Shown piece by piece: positions 1 through 6,034 of a stretch of 6,034 nt of DNA (the first letter of the stretch is position 1; each line of letters begins with the position of its first letter). The notes under the pieces were generated by a model that saw only the letters and a list, made by a program, of their open reading frames with translations, did not search any database and was not told where the DNA came from. Location: IMG/VR virus record IMGVR_UViG_2585427743_000017; one strand, given 5' to 3'. The translations under genes were made by a program, and so were the position numbers. The DNA comes from a virus. Lineage: Duplodnaviria; Heunggongvirae; Uroviricota; Caudoviricetes.

Positions 1-357
1 TATTATCGCCTTAAAGCGCTGATGGAACAGTGCTATCAGGGGCATGCTGATGGAAGATACAGCAAACTTTTGACCAGGCTGAATAATAGCGATCTGCTGC
101 TTCTGGATGACTGGGGGCTGGAACCTCTCTCATCAGAACAGCGTAGCGACCTGCTGGAAATAGTGGATCTGATGTACCAACGAGGCTCAATCATCGTAGT
201 GAGCCAGTTGCCGGTGGAAAACTGGTACAAAATGATCGGAGACTCCACACATGCGGATGCCATCCTAGATCGACTGGTTCATGGCAGTATCAAGATCGAA
301 CTTAAAGGAGAATCAATGCGGAAAATACAATCTCCGTTGACCGAAGGAGATCAGTGA
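1..357 (+). CDS. istB: IS21-family transposition helper ATPase IstB, 3' portion only (N-terminus lies upstream of the window)
   Basis: The reading frame is open from base 1 with no stop before the Met at 22, and ends at TGA 355-357. The translation carries an IstB-type Walker B region (LLLLDDWG) and the conserved C-terminal motif ADAILDRLVHGSIKIELKGESMRK, which resembles the IS21 IstB C-terminus. Family assignment is from memory; the specific IS was not identified. Confidence 0.8.
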   Translation, partial: YYRLKALMEQCYQGHADGRYSKLLTRLNNSDLLLLDDWGLEPLSSEQRSDLLEIVDLMYQRGSIIVVSQLPVENWYKMIGDSTHADAILDRLVHGSIKIELKGESMRKIQSPLTEGDQ

Positions 358-393
358 AGGTAATTTAAAAACGGTTCTGTGAAAGTGACACGA

Positions 394-426
394 ACCGATC
401 TCCATCGATGTTACTCACCGATCTCC
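394..426. repeat. Direct repeat ACCGATCTCC x2 (394-403 and 417-426), candidate multiple terminal repeats / transposase binding sites of the IS end
   Basis: Two exact 10-mer copies 23 bp apart, directly downstream of istB. IS21-family ends are known to carry multiple short terminal repeats. Confidence 0.4.
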
Positions 427-427
427 T

Positions 428-1879
428 TCACGGTAATACGCAAGTGTCTTTCAGCGGTCTGCCGGTATCATTATCGAGCTGACCATCCAGTGCATATCCG
501 TCGATATTTTTTGAGATGTATTTCGCGATATACCCCGCAGCACCGCCCCGGTTAAGGTGTTTCGCCTGAAAACGGTTTCGCGCGGCTCCTCTTTCGTCGC
601 CATCCTCTTTGAGCGCATAGCGACGCATGATTTCGATAATCTGGTTACGCTGGCGTGGATTACAAAAAAGCATCATATGCCAGTGCGGCGTTCCGTCGTG
701 GTGTGGCTCGACGACACGCAAACCGTAGACCTGTAAATCATTATCCTTGAATGCCGTGCGCATCAGGCTCCAGATACGGCAGAGATAACGCTGCGCATCC
801 TTTGGATTAAATGCCTCATCATTCCAGCCGTGATTAAGCTGGACGGTTTTACTTTCGCCTTTTCCGACCTGACGTGTCGGGTGATACTTTGACGGCGTGG
901 TCAGCGTGATAAACATCCCCACATCACCCTCTGCGGCGGCGTAACGCTCAATACCGGCAATGGTGTTCATCAGCTCCATCCGGCGAATTTCAGGATTAGA
1001 AATACTGCCCATCACCTTACTGATAAGGTCGATGCGCTCGCCGGTTTCCCTGTTTTCAAGGTCACACGATTTAAGAAATTCCAGATTTGCCTGGCGGCGT
1101 GCACGCACATCACGAATGGCATGTTTACTGGCATAAGGAGAACGGTCTTTATTCACCTCCCCGACAGCAATCAGTAACGCCTCATGCCAGCGCATACGCT
1201 GGCCTTTAAGCTGATGAGTCCACCACTCATCGTTAAACAGACGGGCAATGGCAGAATATGCCTGCCTCGTGGTCATCTGCCCTTTACGGTATTTTTTCCA
1301 GTAGAGAGGGGAAATATTGAAAGCACGTGCAGCGCCAGCAACATGACCATAGAGGTGAGCCTGCGCCTCATCCGTAAACAGCGATTCTTTTTCGCCATGC
1401 GCATCCACCCAGGCATCGCAGAGTTCCTCATACATCATGAAAAGCTGCGATGAGATACGGGCGGCAAACTTTTTCAGCTCCTTGTCATTCATCCCCGGCA
1501 GACGCGCATAATGGTCACGCTCTGCCAGAAACAGCAACGACGCGTCGGTGTTCATTTCATGGCGCTGATTCACACGCTCAATGCGCGGCCATAAACGACG
1601 CTGAAAAGTGGATGTGAGAAAATAAAACCCGTGCACCGGGCTTTTATTGCGCCGGATGTAGTCATAGCGTGAAGTAAACAGCGAGCGCAAAAAGTAAGGC
1701 AGGCGGTTAATCGTGGATAAAACACCTTGCACCTGACGCATCTCGTCACGTGTAAGGGGTCTTTCGCGCCCGACAGCCTCGCGTGGCGCGTTCCATGCAT
1801 AAGCACCGGTAAGCGCCTTACCGGTGCCTGCGGCAAATGCTGACGGAGGGACAAAACGCCCGGAGGCTTTAACGGCCAT
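428..1879 (-). CDS. A: Phage P2 GpA-type rolling-circle replication initiation endonuclease, C-terminally truncated by the IS insertion (about 483 codons, versus 761 aa for P2 A as recalled)
   Basis: The translation contains the HUH motif (HWHMM) and a YIAKYISK motif. Counting from the ATG at 1879 (MAVKASGRF...), the two tyrosines fall at positions 450 and 454, matching the catalytic Tyr450/Tyr454 of P2 A. The six-frame ORF extends to a TTG at 1921, but ATG 1879 is the likely start. The frame stops at 428-430 within or next to the IS terminus. Confidence 0.8.
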   Translation of the reverse strand: MAVKASGRFVPPSAFAAGTGKALTGAYAWNAPREAVGRERPLTRDEMRQVQGVLSTINRLPYFLRSLFTSRYDYIRRNKSPVHGFYFLTSTFQRRLWPRIERVNQRHEMNTDASLLFLAERDHYARLPGMNDKELKKFAARISSQLFMMYEELCDAWVDAHGEKESLFTDEAQAHLYGHVAGAARAFNISPLYWKKYRKGQMTTRQAYSAIARLFNDEWWTHQLKGQRMRWHEALLIAVGEVNKDRSPYASKHAIRDVRARRQANLEFLKSCDLENRETGERIDLISKVMGSISNPEIRRMELMNTIAGIERYAAAEGDVGMFITLTTPSKYHPTRQVGKGESKTVQLNHGWNDEAFNPKDAQRYLCRIWSLMRTAFKDNDLQVYGLRVVEPHHDGTPHWHMMLFCNPRQRNQIIEIMRRYALKEDGDERGAARNRFQAKHLNRGGAAGYIAKYISKNIDGYALDGQLDNDTGRPLKDTCVLP

Positions 1880-2144
1880 ATGAGCCAAAAGCCTCTGAAC
1901 AACGCTTGCTGAGTTGCTCAACCTGCACGTTTAAATCAGCAAAAGACTTTGCGCTTCCGGTCAGAATATCGTGATGCATCAGGCCTGAAACGAGCTGGCT
2001 TAATTTCGGGTAATAACCAACCACCGCCAGCCATTCCTGACCGGCGTTTTTACCGCTTTCCGCTCTCTTTTTCTCGTGGAGAATAAACTGAAAGCTGTCA
2101 CTGGTAACGACATAACGTTCGCCAATTTCAATACGAATACTCAT
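1869..2144 (-). CDS. Small early-operon protein, P2 orf83 position (function unknown)
   Basis: 91-aa ORF with ATG at 2144 overlapping the stop of the upstream gene (ATGA), and ending 8 nt inside the A start; position corresponds to orf83 of the P2 map. Confidence 0.65.
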   Translation of the reverse strand: MSIRIEIGERYVVTSDSFQFILHEKKRAESGKNAGQEWLAVVGYYPKLSQLVSGLMHHDILTGSAKSFADLNVQVEQLSKRCSEAFGSYGR

Positions 2145-2365
2145 GCCGTTCTCCGGTAATGTTTGTTTTTTGCTTCAAAGACTGACTGACAGGAAACACA
2201 ACGCGTGGCTGACGGGTAAGCCGCACGACGGGCAGCAGGTATTGGCGCGTCACACTCTTCGCAAACCAGCGCAGAAGCACCGCAATGTTTTACCCTTGCC
2301 GCGTTAATCTGGCGCTCCAGTAATTCAGCCTGTTGTTCCTGAATAAAATCTACGTTGTCCGGCAT
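2141..2365 (-). CDS. TraR/DksA-family C4 zinc-finger protein (P2 orf82 position)
   Basis: 74 aa with a CxxC-(17)-CxxC arrangement (CEEC ... CVSC), typical of the TraR/DksA RNAP secondary-channel binders. Its start overlaps the upstream stop (TAATG). Confidence 0.75.
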   Translation of the reverse strand: MPDNVDFIQEQQAELLERQINAARVKHCGASALVCEECDAPIPAARRAAYPSATRCVSCQSVFEAKNKHYRRTA

Positions 2366-2667
2366 TACCAGTTCCTTTTGTCGTTCAGTTTTTTAAATTC
2401 ATCAGCGCAATAGCTGGCGATTTCTGTCGTTAATTTCGTCAGTTCATCCACGGAGGAAATTTGCTTGTGAAATACAGCGCGTTTAACAAGTAAATTGACC
2501 ACATCAGACAGGAGGTTTAATTCACTCTGATAAATCGCGATAACAGATTCAGTTATTTCGCGTTTTTCTTTATCAAGACCAAGTTGAATAAGAGACAAAT
2601 CGCCATTTTTCATAACGGCGATTTTTAAGGCATTGTTCAGTAAAACAACTGAACGAGAACAGGACAT
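2365..2667 (-). CDS. Small early-operon protein, P2 orf81 position (function unknown)
   Basis: ATG at 2667-2665 overlaps the orf80 stop (TGATG) and is preceded by GGGGAGGTG; the six-frame track starts one codon earlier at a TTG. About 100 aa. Confidence 0.6.
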   Translation of the reverse strand: MSCSRSVVLLNNALKIAVMKNGDLSLIQLGLDKEKREITESVIAIYQSELNLLSDVVNLLVKRAVFHKQISSVDELTKLTTEIASYCADEFKKLNDKRNW

Positions 2668-2891
2668 CAAAGCACCTCCCCGCGAGACAAGCCGATGTTG
2701 TGAAATTTTTCCGACTCCTGACTGAGCAGCTCGACTATCTCCACGCGGGATAACTCCGCCTTTGTGATGTGGCGAATCATGGCGTCAAGATGAGAAGAAA
2801 AGCGCGTCGCTGCATCGGCCTGTGCTTCGGTTCTGGCCTGTTGCAGCAGTAATGCGTATTTACCGCACTGATTTTCAGAAACTGTATGCAT
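2667..2891 (-). CDS. Small early-operon protein, P2 orf80 position (function unknown)
   Basis: I prefer the ATG at 2891 (MHTVSENQ...), which is preceded by GGAGAA at a 6-nt spacing, over the GTG at 2924 used by the ORF track. About 74 aa. Confidence 0.6.
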
Positions 2892-2954
2892 GACTTTCTC
2901 CAGGCAAAAAGAAGCCCCGCACAATTAAGTGCGTTAAAAACTCTGGTTAATTAC

Positions 2955-3455
2955 TTAATGCAGATATTGCTCTGGTTTTACCGATGTCAGAATTGTCGGT
3001 GCATACTCAAACAGACTGAATAATTCACGTAATGCACGGAATAAAGCATCACGCCAGTAACATGATTCTTCATTAATTCGCCAGTATGGCTGGTTGAATT
3101 CTTTTTCTGTCAATCTGGCATGCATAAATAAAGTACGCCGCTGACTGACTGTTAAAAAACTAATATATGCATACTCACTTGCACCGACCTGACGGCGTTT
3201 TGAGAATGCCCCACGCAATTCATCAATTGCACAAACCAGCCGTTCACGTTCGACATCGTTCATTTCTTCGAAACGCATCGTTGCGTGACGTTGTTTTAAC
3301 TGCGCATGGAAGCAAACCGTTAGCCGTTCACGTTCCATCATCTGATTATAATAATCACATGTCTCCTGCCAGCGAGGGACGGCCAGATGCTTACCAATTA
3401 TCCGGCGCATAGCTGCTGGCTGTTTTTCGACGAGATTAAGTGTCATCACTGTCAT
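2955..3455 (-). CDS. B: Phage P2 replication protein B (DnaB-helicase-associated, needed for lagging-strand synthesis)
   Basis: 166 aa, identical in length to P2 B, and placed between orf78 and orf80 as in P2. Identity is by recall, not alignment. Confidence 0.75.
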   Translation of the reverse strand: MTVMTLNLVEKQPAAMRRIIGKHLAVPRWQETCDYYNQMMERERLTVCFHAQLKQRHATMRFEEMNDVERERLVCAIDELRGAFSKRRQVGASEYAYISFLTVSQRRTLFMHARLTEKEFNQPYWRINEESCYWRDALFRALRELFSLFEYAPTILTSVKPEQYLH

Positions 3456-3622
3456 TTCCAGACCCTCCGGCTTTTCAGAAAGGTCAGAGCCTTTTTTAAC
3501 GGACTCTGTTTTTTGGTGCGGATAATGATTCCCTTACGCCCCTTACCGTGGGTGATGGTGAAGTCAATCGCCCTGGGGCTTTCGTTACGCAGTAACTGAG
3601 CAATACAACGAGGTTCATTCAT
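3452..3622 (-). CDS. Small basic protein, P2 orf78 position (function unknown)
   Basis: ATG at 3622 is preceded by a strong Shine-Dalgarno (GTTAAGGAGAACCGT-ATG) that contains the cox stop codon. 56 aa, very Lys/Arg rich. The ORF track's longer version starts at a GTG at 3646 inside cox. Confidence 0.6.
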   Translation of the reverse strand: MNEPRCIAQLLRNESPRAIDFTITHGKGRKGIIIRTKKQSPLKKALTFLKSRRVWK

Positions 3623-3632
3623 ACGGTTCTCC

Positions 3633-3908
3633 TTAACGTGGTTCACCGAGACCTAACCACATCAACCAGCCGTCACGAATCTCTTTAGGGCGGCTTTCAT
3701 AAGCCAGTTTTAGTCCGTTATTCCATGCCGGAAGGTATACCCAATATTCACCTGCACGACCTGAAGCTGATTGTGGATCGGTCATATCAATTACAGGCAG
3801 CTTTCCTTTATCGATCATCCGACGAACCGCTCCTGTCGATTTTCCTATTAGTTTTGCGAACTCCTGATAAGGAATCGCATCAGTCATGAGTGTTACTTGC
3901 TTGCTCAT
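3633..3908 (-). CDS. cox: Phage P2 Cox (excisionase / directionality factor and repressor of Pc)
   Basis: 91 aa, first gene of the leftward operon. It is divergent from C and preceded by a GGAGG RBS. The sequence (MSKQVTLMTDAIPYQEFAKLIGKSTGAVRRMIDKGKLPVIDMTD...) matches my recollection of P2 Cox. Confidence 0.85.
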   Translation of the reverse strand: MSKQVTLMTDAIPYQEFAKLIGKSTGAVRRMIDKGKLPVIDMTDPQSASGRAGEYWVYLPAWNNGLKLAYESRPKEIRDGWLMWLGLGEPR

Positions 3909-3945
3909 GTCGTCCTCCAGCCCTCATGAATTGCGTTTAATGCCT

Positions 3946-3951
3946 TATAAT
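3946..3951 (+). promoter_or_regulatory. Candidate -10 hexamer (TATAAT) of the rightward repressor promoter Pc
   Basis: A perfect TATAAT lies 72 bp upstream of the C start codon. No good -35 is visible at a 17-bp spacing (CTCATG), so the assignment is tentative. A Pc start near 3958 would give the roughly 30-nt transcript overlap with Pe described for P2. Confidence 0.4.
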
Positions 3952-3989
3952 GCCTTTTAGTGCACACATCCAAGCACTAAACAATCTAC

Positions 3990-4029
3990 ATCTAAACTAA
4001 ATACTATTGAGATCTAAACACCATGTCAA
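3990..4029 (-). promoter_or_regulatory. Early promoter Pe with operator: -35 TTGACA (4029-4024), 17-bp spacer, -10 TAGTAT (4006-4001), flanked by 8-bp direct repeats ATCTAAAC at 3990-3997 and 4012-4019 (C repressor half-sites O2/O1)
   Basis: Read on the minus strand there are consensus -35 and near-consensus -10 hexamers with a 17-nt spacer. Two exact 8-mer direct repeats, 22 bp centre to centre, straddle the -10, matching the described P2 operator architecture. The -35 overlaps the C start codon. Confidence 0.7.
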
Positions 4030-4322
4030 ACACGATAAGCGAGAAGATAGTCTTAATGCGAAAATCAGAGTATTTGAGCAGACAACAACTTGCTGATTTA
4101 ACAGGGGTTCCGTATGGCACGCTGAGTTACTATGAAAGTGGTCGTTCAACACCTCCAACAGATGTCATGATGAACATCCTGCAGACCCCACAATTCACCA
4201 AATACACTTTATGGTTCATGACCAATCAGATCGCTCCTGAGTCCGGGCAAATTGCGCCCGCTCTCGCACACTTTGGGCAAAACGAAACAACGTCGCCCCA
4301 CTCCGGTCAAAAGACTGGTTAA
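4023..4322 (+). CDS. C: Phage P2 immunity repressor C
   Basis: 99 aa, same length as P2 C, divergent from cox and upstream of int. The sequence (MSNTISEKIVLMRKSEYLSRQQLADLTGVPYGTLSYYESGRSTP...) contains a helix-turn-helix-like segment (QQLADLTGVPYGTLSYYE). Confidence 0.85.
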   Translation: MSNTISEKIVLMRKSEYLSRQQLADLTGVPYGTLSYYESGRSTPPTDVMMNILQTPQFTKYTLWFMTNQIAPESGQIAPALAHFGQNETTSPHSGQKTG

Positions 4323-4361
4323 CAATTCATCGTGAATATATTCATCACAAGTGCCTACTAT

Positions 4362-4384
4362 TGGTGGCTAAATTTCAGCCACCA
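4362..4384 (+). other. Stem-loop in the C-int intergenic region (8-bp stem TGGTGGCT/AGCCACCA, 7-nt loop)
   Basis: Perfect inverted repeat at 4362-4369 and 4377-4384. It is not followed by a U-tract on either strand, so it is not a canonical intrinsic terminator. Confidence 0.4.
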
Positions 4385-4437
4385 CGAAAAAAGCGATTAG
4401 TAGTCGCCAAAAAACACACCACTCGGAGGGTTTTCTG

Positions 4438-5451
4438 ATGGCAATCAAAAAACTCGATGATGGTCGATATGAAGTGGACATCCGCCCTACTGGACGTAAT
4501 GGAAAACGCATCCGTAGGAAGTTTGATAAGAAAAGCGAAGCTGTCGCTTTCGAGAAATACACGTTGTACAACCACCACAATAAAGAATGGCTATCAAAAC
4601 CAACAGACAAGCGACGTCTGTCGGAGCTGACACAGATCTGGTGGGATTTAAAGGGTAAACACGAAGAGCATGGGAAATCTAATCTTGGAAAAATTGAAAT
4701 CTTCACAAAAATAACGAATGACCCATGCGCATTTCAAATTACGAAATCGCTTATCAGCCAGTACTGCGCCACCCGAAGAAGTCAGGGTATTAAACCTTCG
4801 AGTATCAATCGTGATTTAACATGTATTAGCGGCATGTTTACAGCCCTGATTGAAGCGGAGTTATTCTTTGGTGAGCACCCTATCAGAGGAACAAAAAGGC
4901 TTAAGGAGGAAAAACCAGACACAGGCTATCTCACGCAGGAAGAAATTGCCTTACTGCTTGCTGCTCTTGACGGCGACAATAAAAAGATTGCGATTCTTTG
5001 CCTGAGTACTGGGGCACGTTGGGGAGAAGCAGCTCGTTTGAAAGCAGAAAATATCATCCATAACCGCGTCACGTTTGTTAAAACGAAAACAAACAAACCA
5101 CGCACCGTCCCGATCTCAGAGGCTGTTGCCAAAATGATCGCGGATAACAAACGAGGTTTTTTATTCCCTGATGCTGATTACCCTCGCTTCAGACGAACAA
5201 TGAAAGCAATAAAACCGGATTTGCCAATGGGGCAAGCCACACATGCACTAAGGCACAGCTTTGCCACTCATTTCATGATTAATGGAGGAAGTATTATCAC
5301 GCTACAACGGATACTAGGTCACACGCGGATTGAACAAACTATGGTTTACGCTCATTTTGCGCCAGAGTACCTTCAGGACGCCATTTCTCTTAATCCGCTA
5401 AGAGGTGGTACTGAGGCCGAGAGTGTCCACACAGTGTCCACAGTAGAGTAA
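4438..5451 (+). CDS. int: Phage P2 integrase (tyrosine site-specific recombinase)
   Basis: 337 aa, same length as P2 Int, with a GGAGGG RBS 8 nt upstream. Catalytic signature residues are present: R in GARWGEA, H-x-x-R in HALRHSFATH, and Y in HTRIEQTMVYAHF. Confidence 0.9.
   Translation: MAIKKLDDGRYEVDIRPTGRNGKRIRRKFDKKSEAVAFEKYTLYNHHNKEWLSKPTDKRRLSELTQIWWDLKGKHEEHGKSNLGKIEIFTKITNDPCAFQITKSLISQYCATRRSQGIKPSSINRDLTCISGMFTALIEAELFFGEHPIRGTKRLKEEKPDTGYLTQEEIALLLAALDGDNKKIAILCLSTGARWGEAARLKAENIIHNRVTFVKTKTNKPRTVPISEAVAKMIADNKRGFLFPDADYPRFRRTMKAIKPDLPMGQATHALRHSFATHFMINGGSIITLQRILGHTRIEQTMVYAHFAPEYLQDAISLNPLRGGTEAESVHTVSTVE
5423..5442 (-). promoter_or_regulatory. Tandem direct repeat GTGTCCACA x2 (reverse complement TGTGGACA), candidate Int arm-type binding sites of the att P-arm
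   Basis: Two exact 9-mers at 5423-5431 and 5434-5442, overlapping the last codons of int. The reverse complement matches my recollection of the P2 Int arm-site consensus TGTGGACA. Confidence 0.5.
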
Positions 5452-5530
5452 CGTTTAAGGGCTTTCAGTGGTAATTTATGCCGCTCAAACCCGCATTGTA
5501 CCGTTGAAAGCCCCTACTGGTGACACCCTA

Positions 5531-5557
5531 AATCTCCCTTACACGGGCTTATTTTTT
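5531..5557 (-). other. P2 att core (27 bp; reverse complement AAAAAATAAGCCCGTGTAAGGGAGATT), i.e. the prophage/host junction core
   Basis: Exact match, in reverse complement, to the 27-nt P2 attP/attB core as I recall it, located 80 bp past the int stop. No Int arm repeats are found beyond it, consistent with non-phage DNA on the far side. Confidence 0.75.
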
Positions 5558-5621
5558 TATGCATAAGCCCTATCTCTGGTAACCGTCTTCCATTGACCAC
5601 ATCGATAGAATCTCCCTTCAT

Positions 5622-5654
5622 AGCACGATGCCTTTCACGTAACGGCATCGTGCT
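5622..5654. other. Perfect 11-bp inverted repeat (AGCACGATGCC ... GGCATCGTGCT) with an 11-nt loop
   Basis: Seen directly in the sequence between the att core and the lipoprotein gene. No adjacent T-tract, so its function is unclear (protein binding site or RNA structure). Confidence 0.4.
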
Positions 5655-5716
5655 CGCACAGGTTCCGGCTAAGCACAACCAGAACGCGCATGTTTGACGC
5701 TTACCAAAAAATATTC

Positions 5717-6034
5717 TCACTCTCCACATTTGAATGTCAGACGAGCGACGCCATGTAATCCTGCACCTTCTGTCTTCAGGTCAACTATCTGCATTTTTTT
5801 GCCCTGAGTAACACAGAAATGGGCTGCATCATTTTTTACTATATTTTCTGCACCAGATATTCTGCCCCTGGCTAAAGAAGCTTCGGCTTCGGTGTAGTAT
5901 TGGTTATCGAGTTTACGCTGAATATTACTTTTATATGCAAGACCAAATTTACCGATACTTGTCTCATCATTATGCACAGCACAACCAGACACAATAAAAA
6001 TACTAATTAATGATATAGCAGCTATCTTTTTCAT
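5717..6034 (-). CDS. Small lipoprotein of unknown function (105 aa); flanking host gene or cargo gene next to the att site
   Basis: The N-terminus MKKIAAISLISIFIVSGC is a classical lipoprotein signal peptide with a lipobox (VSGC). The ATG is at the window edge, so the RBS is unseen. The coding sequence is AT-rich compared with the prophage. Its length and att-adjacent position are compatible with E. coli yegR, but I cannot confirm that from memory. Confidence 0.6.
   Translation of the reverse strand: MKKIAAISLISIFIVSGCAVHNDETSIGKFGLAYKSNIQRKLDNQYYTEAEASLARGRISGAENIVKNDAAHFCVTQGKKMQIVDLKTEGAGLHGVARLTFKCGE

Follow-up and report, generated by a model that had tools for sequence, protein, structure and literature searches.

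Probable recent insertion of ISEc12 into replication gene A of a P2 prophage beside yegR in Escherichia coli 6-319-05_S1

In E. coli 6-319-05_S1, a P2 prophage located beside yegR very probably had its gene A split by a simple and recent insertion of ISEc12, an event that almost certainly cripples the phage. The window, that is, the whole stretch of 6,034 nucleotides analysed here, lies at the end of contig JORE01000053.1 (GCA_000713015.1), of which it covers the final 6,034 bases less one, and its start lies 1 nt from the contig end. ISEc12 extends to position 442, and P2 homology (98%) spans position 1950 down to exactly 443, with matches at E = 0, far above chance. This agrees with the initial annotation, in which an IS21-family element interrupted the P2 A gene just after its catalytic tyrosines. 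The interrupted locus is an ordinary one, since both elements are known and are nearly identical to described copies.

Under the reading that we favour, ISEc12 (2,581 bp, encoding the transposase IstA and the helper ATPase IstB) would have entered between A codons 478 and 479 and duplicated AGTGT. The 5' part of A now encodes A(1–479) followed by CVLP, and the 3' part (codons 479–754) would have stayed beside the other IS end, together with the ori nick site if its position in P2 applies. The lysogen functions, namely C immunity, int and the cargo of the A–Q hotspot, would be unaffected. As the early operon is repressed in a lysogen, the insertion should be close to neutral for the host. It is probably recent and clone-specific, and looks like a case of ordinary early prophage decay and not of selected domestication.

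ISEc12 terminus and truncated gene A

The 3' end of istB of ISEc12 (IS21 family), comprising the last 118 codons and the stop codon, was located at 1..357 on the plus strand. These positions encode the IstB C-terminus (Pfam PF01695 IstB_IS21, E 2e-30, profile positions 125–234 of 238), and 2,167 records of the RefSeq protein "IS21-like element ISEc12 family helper ATPase IstB" matched the window with an identity of at least 99%. The contig of the window stops inside istB; in complete ISEc12 copies identical over the visible 442 nt, istA is found upstream of istB. Positions 358..442 (+) comprise the right end of ISEc12, which is non-coding and contains the imperfect terminal inverted repeat; this was assigned from two complete copies and from identity to the pM217_I1 plasmid copy.

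The tip of the element was set base by base from two independent complete ISEc12 copies, one on the SE15 chromosome (NC_013654.1) and one on plasmid pM217_I1 (NZ_AP019190.1). Each copy is 2,581 bp long, starts with TGCGTATTTTCATGAAAGG, ends with GGTAATACGCA and lies between 5-bp target duplications of its own, GTGGT in one case and GTATC in the other. In the window the terminus reads ...GGTAATACGCA, with its last base at 442, and window 1–442 was 100% identical to the pM217_I1 copy (NZ_AP019190.1). An istB segment not bounded by an IS terminus would have overturned the initial annotation, and the segment does end exactly at the ISEc12 tip, base 442. The copies in SE15 and pM217_I1 have istB, the right terminus, the subterminal repeats and a 5-bp target duplication in common with the window, and the copy in the window differs from them by its target only, P2 gene A at codons 478/479.

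Elements of the IS21 family carry the genes for IstA and IstB, have imperfect terminal inverted repeats of the form 5'-TG...CA-3' and subterminal repeats, and generate target duplications of 4–8 bp. The inverted repeats of ISEc12 are TGCGTATTTTCATGAAAGGAGATC at the left end and ...GATCTCCTTCACGGTAATACGCA at the right end, with CA at window 441–442. A repeat search yielded two subterminal direct repeats, ACCGATCTCC(A/T)TC, at 394–406 and 417–429 (+), which we take to be probable IstA binding sites, as is typical at IS21-family ends. The true IS terminus lies 13 bp beyond the second of these repeats. Terminal repeats had initially been described at 394–426; direct repeats do exist there, but they are subterminal and do not form the element tip. 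Likewise, the IS junction proposed at about 426/427 had to be moved to 442/443, the last four codons of the A reading frame and its stop codon being encoded by the IS. Extents from megablast had placed the ISEc12 terminus at 450–456, or given an 8-bp overlap with P2, and were rejected as chance extension into flanking DNA on the basis of the two-copy comparison. A Rfam scan of the whole window gave no match at gathering thresholds.

Truncated gene A, an open reading frame of 483 aa at 428..1879 on the minus strand, was defined by alignment to A of P2 and of enterotoxigenic E. coli (ETEC) strain 602354 and by Pfam Phage_GPA. Codons 1–479 correspond to nt 1879–443, the IS-encoded residues CVLP (codons 480–483) to nt 442–431 and the stop codon to nt 430–428. 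The Pfam Phage_GPA domain (residues 133–462) was complete. The HUH motif (H399-W400-H401; 677..685, −) and the tyrosines Y450 (530–532) and Y454 (518–520) within the motif YIAKY (518..532, −) were read from the sequence, in accordance with the initial annotation, which counted these tyrosines from ATG 1879. The two tyrosines of P2 A are active-site residues (PMC3986222, citing Odegrip & Haggard-Ljungquist 2001). Outside the junction, A showed 98% identity to P2 and 99.9% to strain 602354. When compared with P2 gpA (NC_001895.1, 28034–30319), nucleotide identity was 98% over codons 1–479, and the HUH motif, Y450 and Y454 were common to both. In contrast, the reading frame in the window has 483 aa versus 761 aa in P2 gpA, its last 4 residues are IS-encoded, and the ori at codon 620 would be displaced beyond the IS. 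Full-length A is 761 aa in P2 and 754 aa in the nearest prophage (strain 602354), and the truncated reading frame lacked 36–37% of the A protein (C-terminal 275–282 residues). A naturally short A homologue of about 483 aa, which would have overturned the initial reading, was ruled out, as all phage matches extend past the junction and related phages and prophages encode proteins of 754–761 aa. Truncated A has two GenBank entries, KEM27580.1 and KEM93520.1, which come from E. coli 6-319-05_S1_C1 and _C3.

Reciprocal junction and target duplication

AGTGT at 443..447 was assigned as the probable right-hand copy of the 5-bp target duplication, from the start of P2 homology at 443 and from a match to a 281-aa reading frame. 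In the direction of A it reads ACACT and covers part of codon 478 and codon 479. The exact junction and the target duplication, which the initial annotation had left to be located, were placed at 442/443 and at 443–447, the latter by way of the protein match P0121 described below. The interrupted allele is marked at its junction by the sequence CACGGTAATACGCAAGTGTCTTTCAGCGG. For the left junction, the predicted sequence in the A reading direction is ...TTTCATGAAAATACGCA, followed by ACACT and then by GCCGCG...; in the orientation of the window it is ...GCCGCGGCAGTGT followed by the ISEc12 left end TGCGTATTTTCATG....

An outward-facing ATG (reverse complement of TGCGTATTTTCAT) is present in the ISEc12 left end. 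Given the 5-bp duplication, this ATG is predicted to open a chimeric reading frame of 281 aa, consisting of MKIRN and A(479–754). The predicted protein, MKIRNTAAAVTAW...GWGDS, had an exact match in the protein collection (P0121), found on 3 NCBI contigs, the longest of 123,467 bp. P0121 has no GenBank or sample accession, and its contigs presumably come from the same genomes as the window. Because the frame would differ without the ACACT duplication, the match speaks for the reciprocal junction as well as for the 5-bp duplication. It favours a simple insertion, in which 5 bp were duplicated, over a deletion. The loss of the C-terminal third, as initially annotated, held for the reading frame (483 versus 754–761 aa) but apparently not for the genome, in which the P0121 match indicates that the 3' part of A is still present. 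The halves of A should still be adjacent and the late genes of the window prophage intact.

The identical junction was found in the sibling assembly GCA_000713335.1, on the 2.9-kb contig JORT01000134.1, with 4 mismatches over window 89–2984. As the junction was seen in two assemblies, it is not an assembly chimera. JORT01000134.1 differed from the window at 306, 1280, 1619 and 2061, and two of these differences matched the strain 602354 allele; the contig stops where gene B has its 3' end. The differences could stem from assembly noise or from a second P2-like element in this genome.

Remaining prophage, nearest relative and age of the insertion

The rest of the early operon (1869..3908, −) was intact, every protein having the length of its P2 homologue and 97–100% identity to it. 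On the minus strand it comprises cox (3633–3908), orf78 (3452–3622), B (2955–3455), orf80 (2667–2891), orf81 (2365–2667), orf82 (2141–2365) and orf83 (1869–2144). The immunity repressor gene C was located at 4023..4322 (+) and the integrase gene at 4438..5451 (+). The att core, which forms the prophage–host junction, was placed at 5531..5557 by comparison with attP as annotated in P2, to which identity stops at 5557. Compared with P2, C (99/99 aa), Cox (91/91 aa), Int (336/337 aa) and the att core bore out the initial statement that immunity, switch and integration functions were intact. The flanking host gene yegR was present at 5717..6034 (−), according to the RefSeq annotation of 100%-identical matches and Pfam YegR on the source contig. 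The att site on the yegR side is presumably the locus of the cryptic P2 remnant of E. coli K-12 (ogrK, yegZ).

The nearest relative was the P2-like prophage at the yegR site of ETEC strain 602354 (NZ_CP025847.1), to which window 443–6034 (5,592 nt) aligned with 12 mismatches and 0 indels. All 12 mismatches fell within 1280–1816, and 443–1279 and 1817–6034 were identical. Their clustering suggests a small recombination patch. The mismatches sit in the 5' half of gene A, for example KAL versus KMF at residues 21–23 and C versus S at residue 154. The prophage of strain 602354 is the same as that of the window in integration site, early genes, C and int. Unlike the window, it has an uninterrupted A of 754 aa, followed by a PDC-S06 ATPase and then by the portal and terminase genes. 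This ATPase of the A–Q hotspot is a 738-aa AAA_13 protein (record positions 2707–4923, between A and the portal gene) that matched PDC-S06, a candidate defence family of PADLOC (E 5e-254), and has a weakly PrrC-like C-terminus; in P2 the same position is occupied by orf91, tin and old. The contigs of the cluster representatives of the hotspot ATPase carried no IS end, P0164 being a non-identical sequence on a 3.4-kb contig and P0005 lying on an indel-ridden 1.4-kb Logan contig.

The exact junction was present in 0 of 5,426 complete E. coli genomes, and its exact pattern had no match among GTDB species-representative genomes. The interrupted allele was found only in the assemblies named E. coli 6-319-05_S1_C1 and _C3, which are sibling isolates from one sample. 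With zero mismatches beside the IS and an allele confined to siblings, the event was probably recent. These data give no hint of selection on the interrupted allele.

Three other accounts of the junction were weighed. If the IS had gone on to cause a deletion or rearrangement after inserting, the 3' part of A would have been lost or relocated along with the ori and perhaps a large share of the prophage, and only an int–C–cox–B–A' remnant would be left at yegR. The source contig does stop inside the IS, and this assembly break implies at least two ISEc12 copies, between which recombination could keep both junction sequences. However, three NCBI contigs, among them one of 123 kb, carry the exact chimeric reading frame, a deletion from the IS end would destroy that junction, and the phage sequence beside the IS shows no decay, so that we regard this course of events as unlikely. 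That a chimeric contig end fused an IS read with a prophage read has next to no probability. The window does come from the extreme end of a contig built from short reads, but the junction is an exact biological ISEc12 terminus, it was seen in two assemblies, and the reciprocal junction carries the correct 5-bp duplication.

The initial annotation had called the prophage domesticated, and in that case selection would have favoured the loss of A for fixing immunity and defence genes in place while removing the risk of lysis. C, cox, int and att are indeed intact, P2-like prophages bear anti-phage genes in the A–Q hotspot (PMC9122126), and the near-identical prophage of strain 602354 has the PDC-S06 candidate defence ATPase at this hotspot. 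Intact neighbouring genes are nevertheless expected of any fresh insertion, and the allele is limited to sibling isolates from one sample and absent from the 5,426 complete genomes. The flanking DNA is undiverged from strain 602354, and with zero divergence selection is not measurable. Moreover, the loss of A would gain little, since P2 is in any case not inducible and highly stable (PMC2669165). Selected domestication is therefore very improbable, and a simple, recent insertion of ISEc12 into A accounts best for the locus.

Replication, immunity and annotation

P2 replicates by a rolling circle, which is started when A, a protein active in cis, nicks ori. In the P2 record the ori nick site lies at nt 29892, within codon 620 of A; this point is outside the window, at a distance of 422 nt past the junction, and the prophage of strain 602354 is identical to P2 at this site. 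The P2 ori has been placed within gene A (PMC3986222). From this comparison, the ori of the window prophage would lie in the displaced 3' fragment of A. Since 275–282 conserved C-terminal residues were lost and nicking by A starts the P2 rolling circle, a replication defect is most likely; the prophage is most likely unable to start rolling-circle replication or to form plaques, with immunity and integration kept. The whole Phage_GPA domain, the HUH motif and both tyrosines were retained, and it is for this reason that we only infer the loss of activity; there is a small chance of leftover nicking activity in truncated A. Induction, which the initial annotation proposed for a plaque test of the prophage, is unsuitable, as P2 is not SOS-inducible (PMC2669165).

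It is also highly unlikely that the split gene has acquired a new activity, either because A(1–479)+CVLP nicks the ori about 3 kb away when derepressed or because the ATG of the IS drives an orphan C-terminal domain. If nicking did occur upon derepression, for example by a P4-type antirepressor, the locus would be self-nicking, abortive or a helper of P4 only. Six reportedly found in 1975 that P4 satellites require the P2 late genes, and not A or B. If this holds and the late genes are intact, the lysogen could keep P2 immunity and help P4 without making P2.

IS insertion into prophage genes is a familiar route of decay, as in E. coli O157 Sakai (PMC2669165). In Sakai prophage Sp4, in which nu1 is interrupted by an IS (PMC2669165), there is likewise one IS in one essential phage gene and a prophage that is otherwise recognisable. 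The Sakai prophages differ from the window in phage type, in the IS and in the gene affected, a terminase gene and not a replication initiator gene; in addition, the Sakai prophages were tested experimentally, whereas the window is known from its sequence. The locus offers an uncluttered and datable view of how prophage decay begins, all else being identical to a prophage with full-length genes. For annotation, the appropriate label is a P2 prophage whose gene A is interrupted by ISEc12, and not a short "phage replication protein A" (KEM27580.1). Beyond annotation the insertion matters little.

The C-terminal part of A is conserved as a protein sequence, with 38 invariant columns among 33 homologues, which were 50–81% identical. 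By sequence, the lost C-terminal third had no relative in the PDB, and an AlphaFold model of it, built from the 33-sequence alignment, had a mean pLDDT of 55 and a pTM of 0.26, too poor to interpret. The most invariant stretch of this third was the block AAPRSPVNNCG (P2 A residues ~610–630; alignment positions 133–142), which overlaps the ori nick site and had a model pLDDT below 50. Conservation of this block may be imposed by the DNA, as ori, and not by protein structure.
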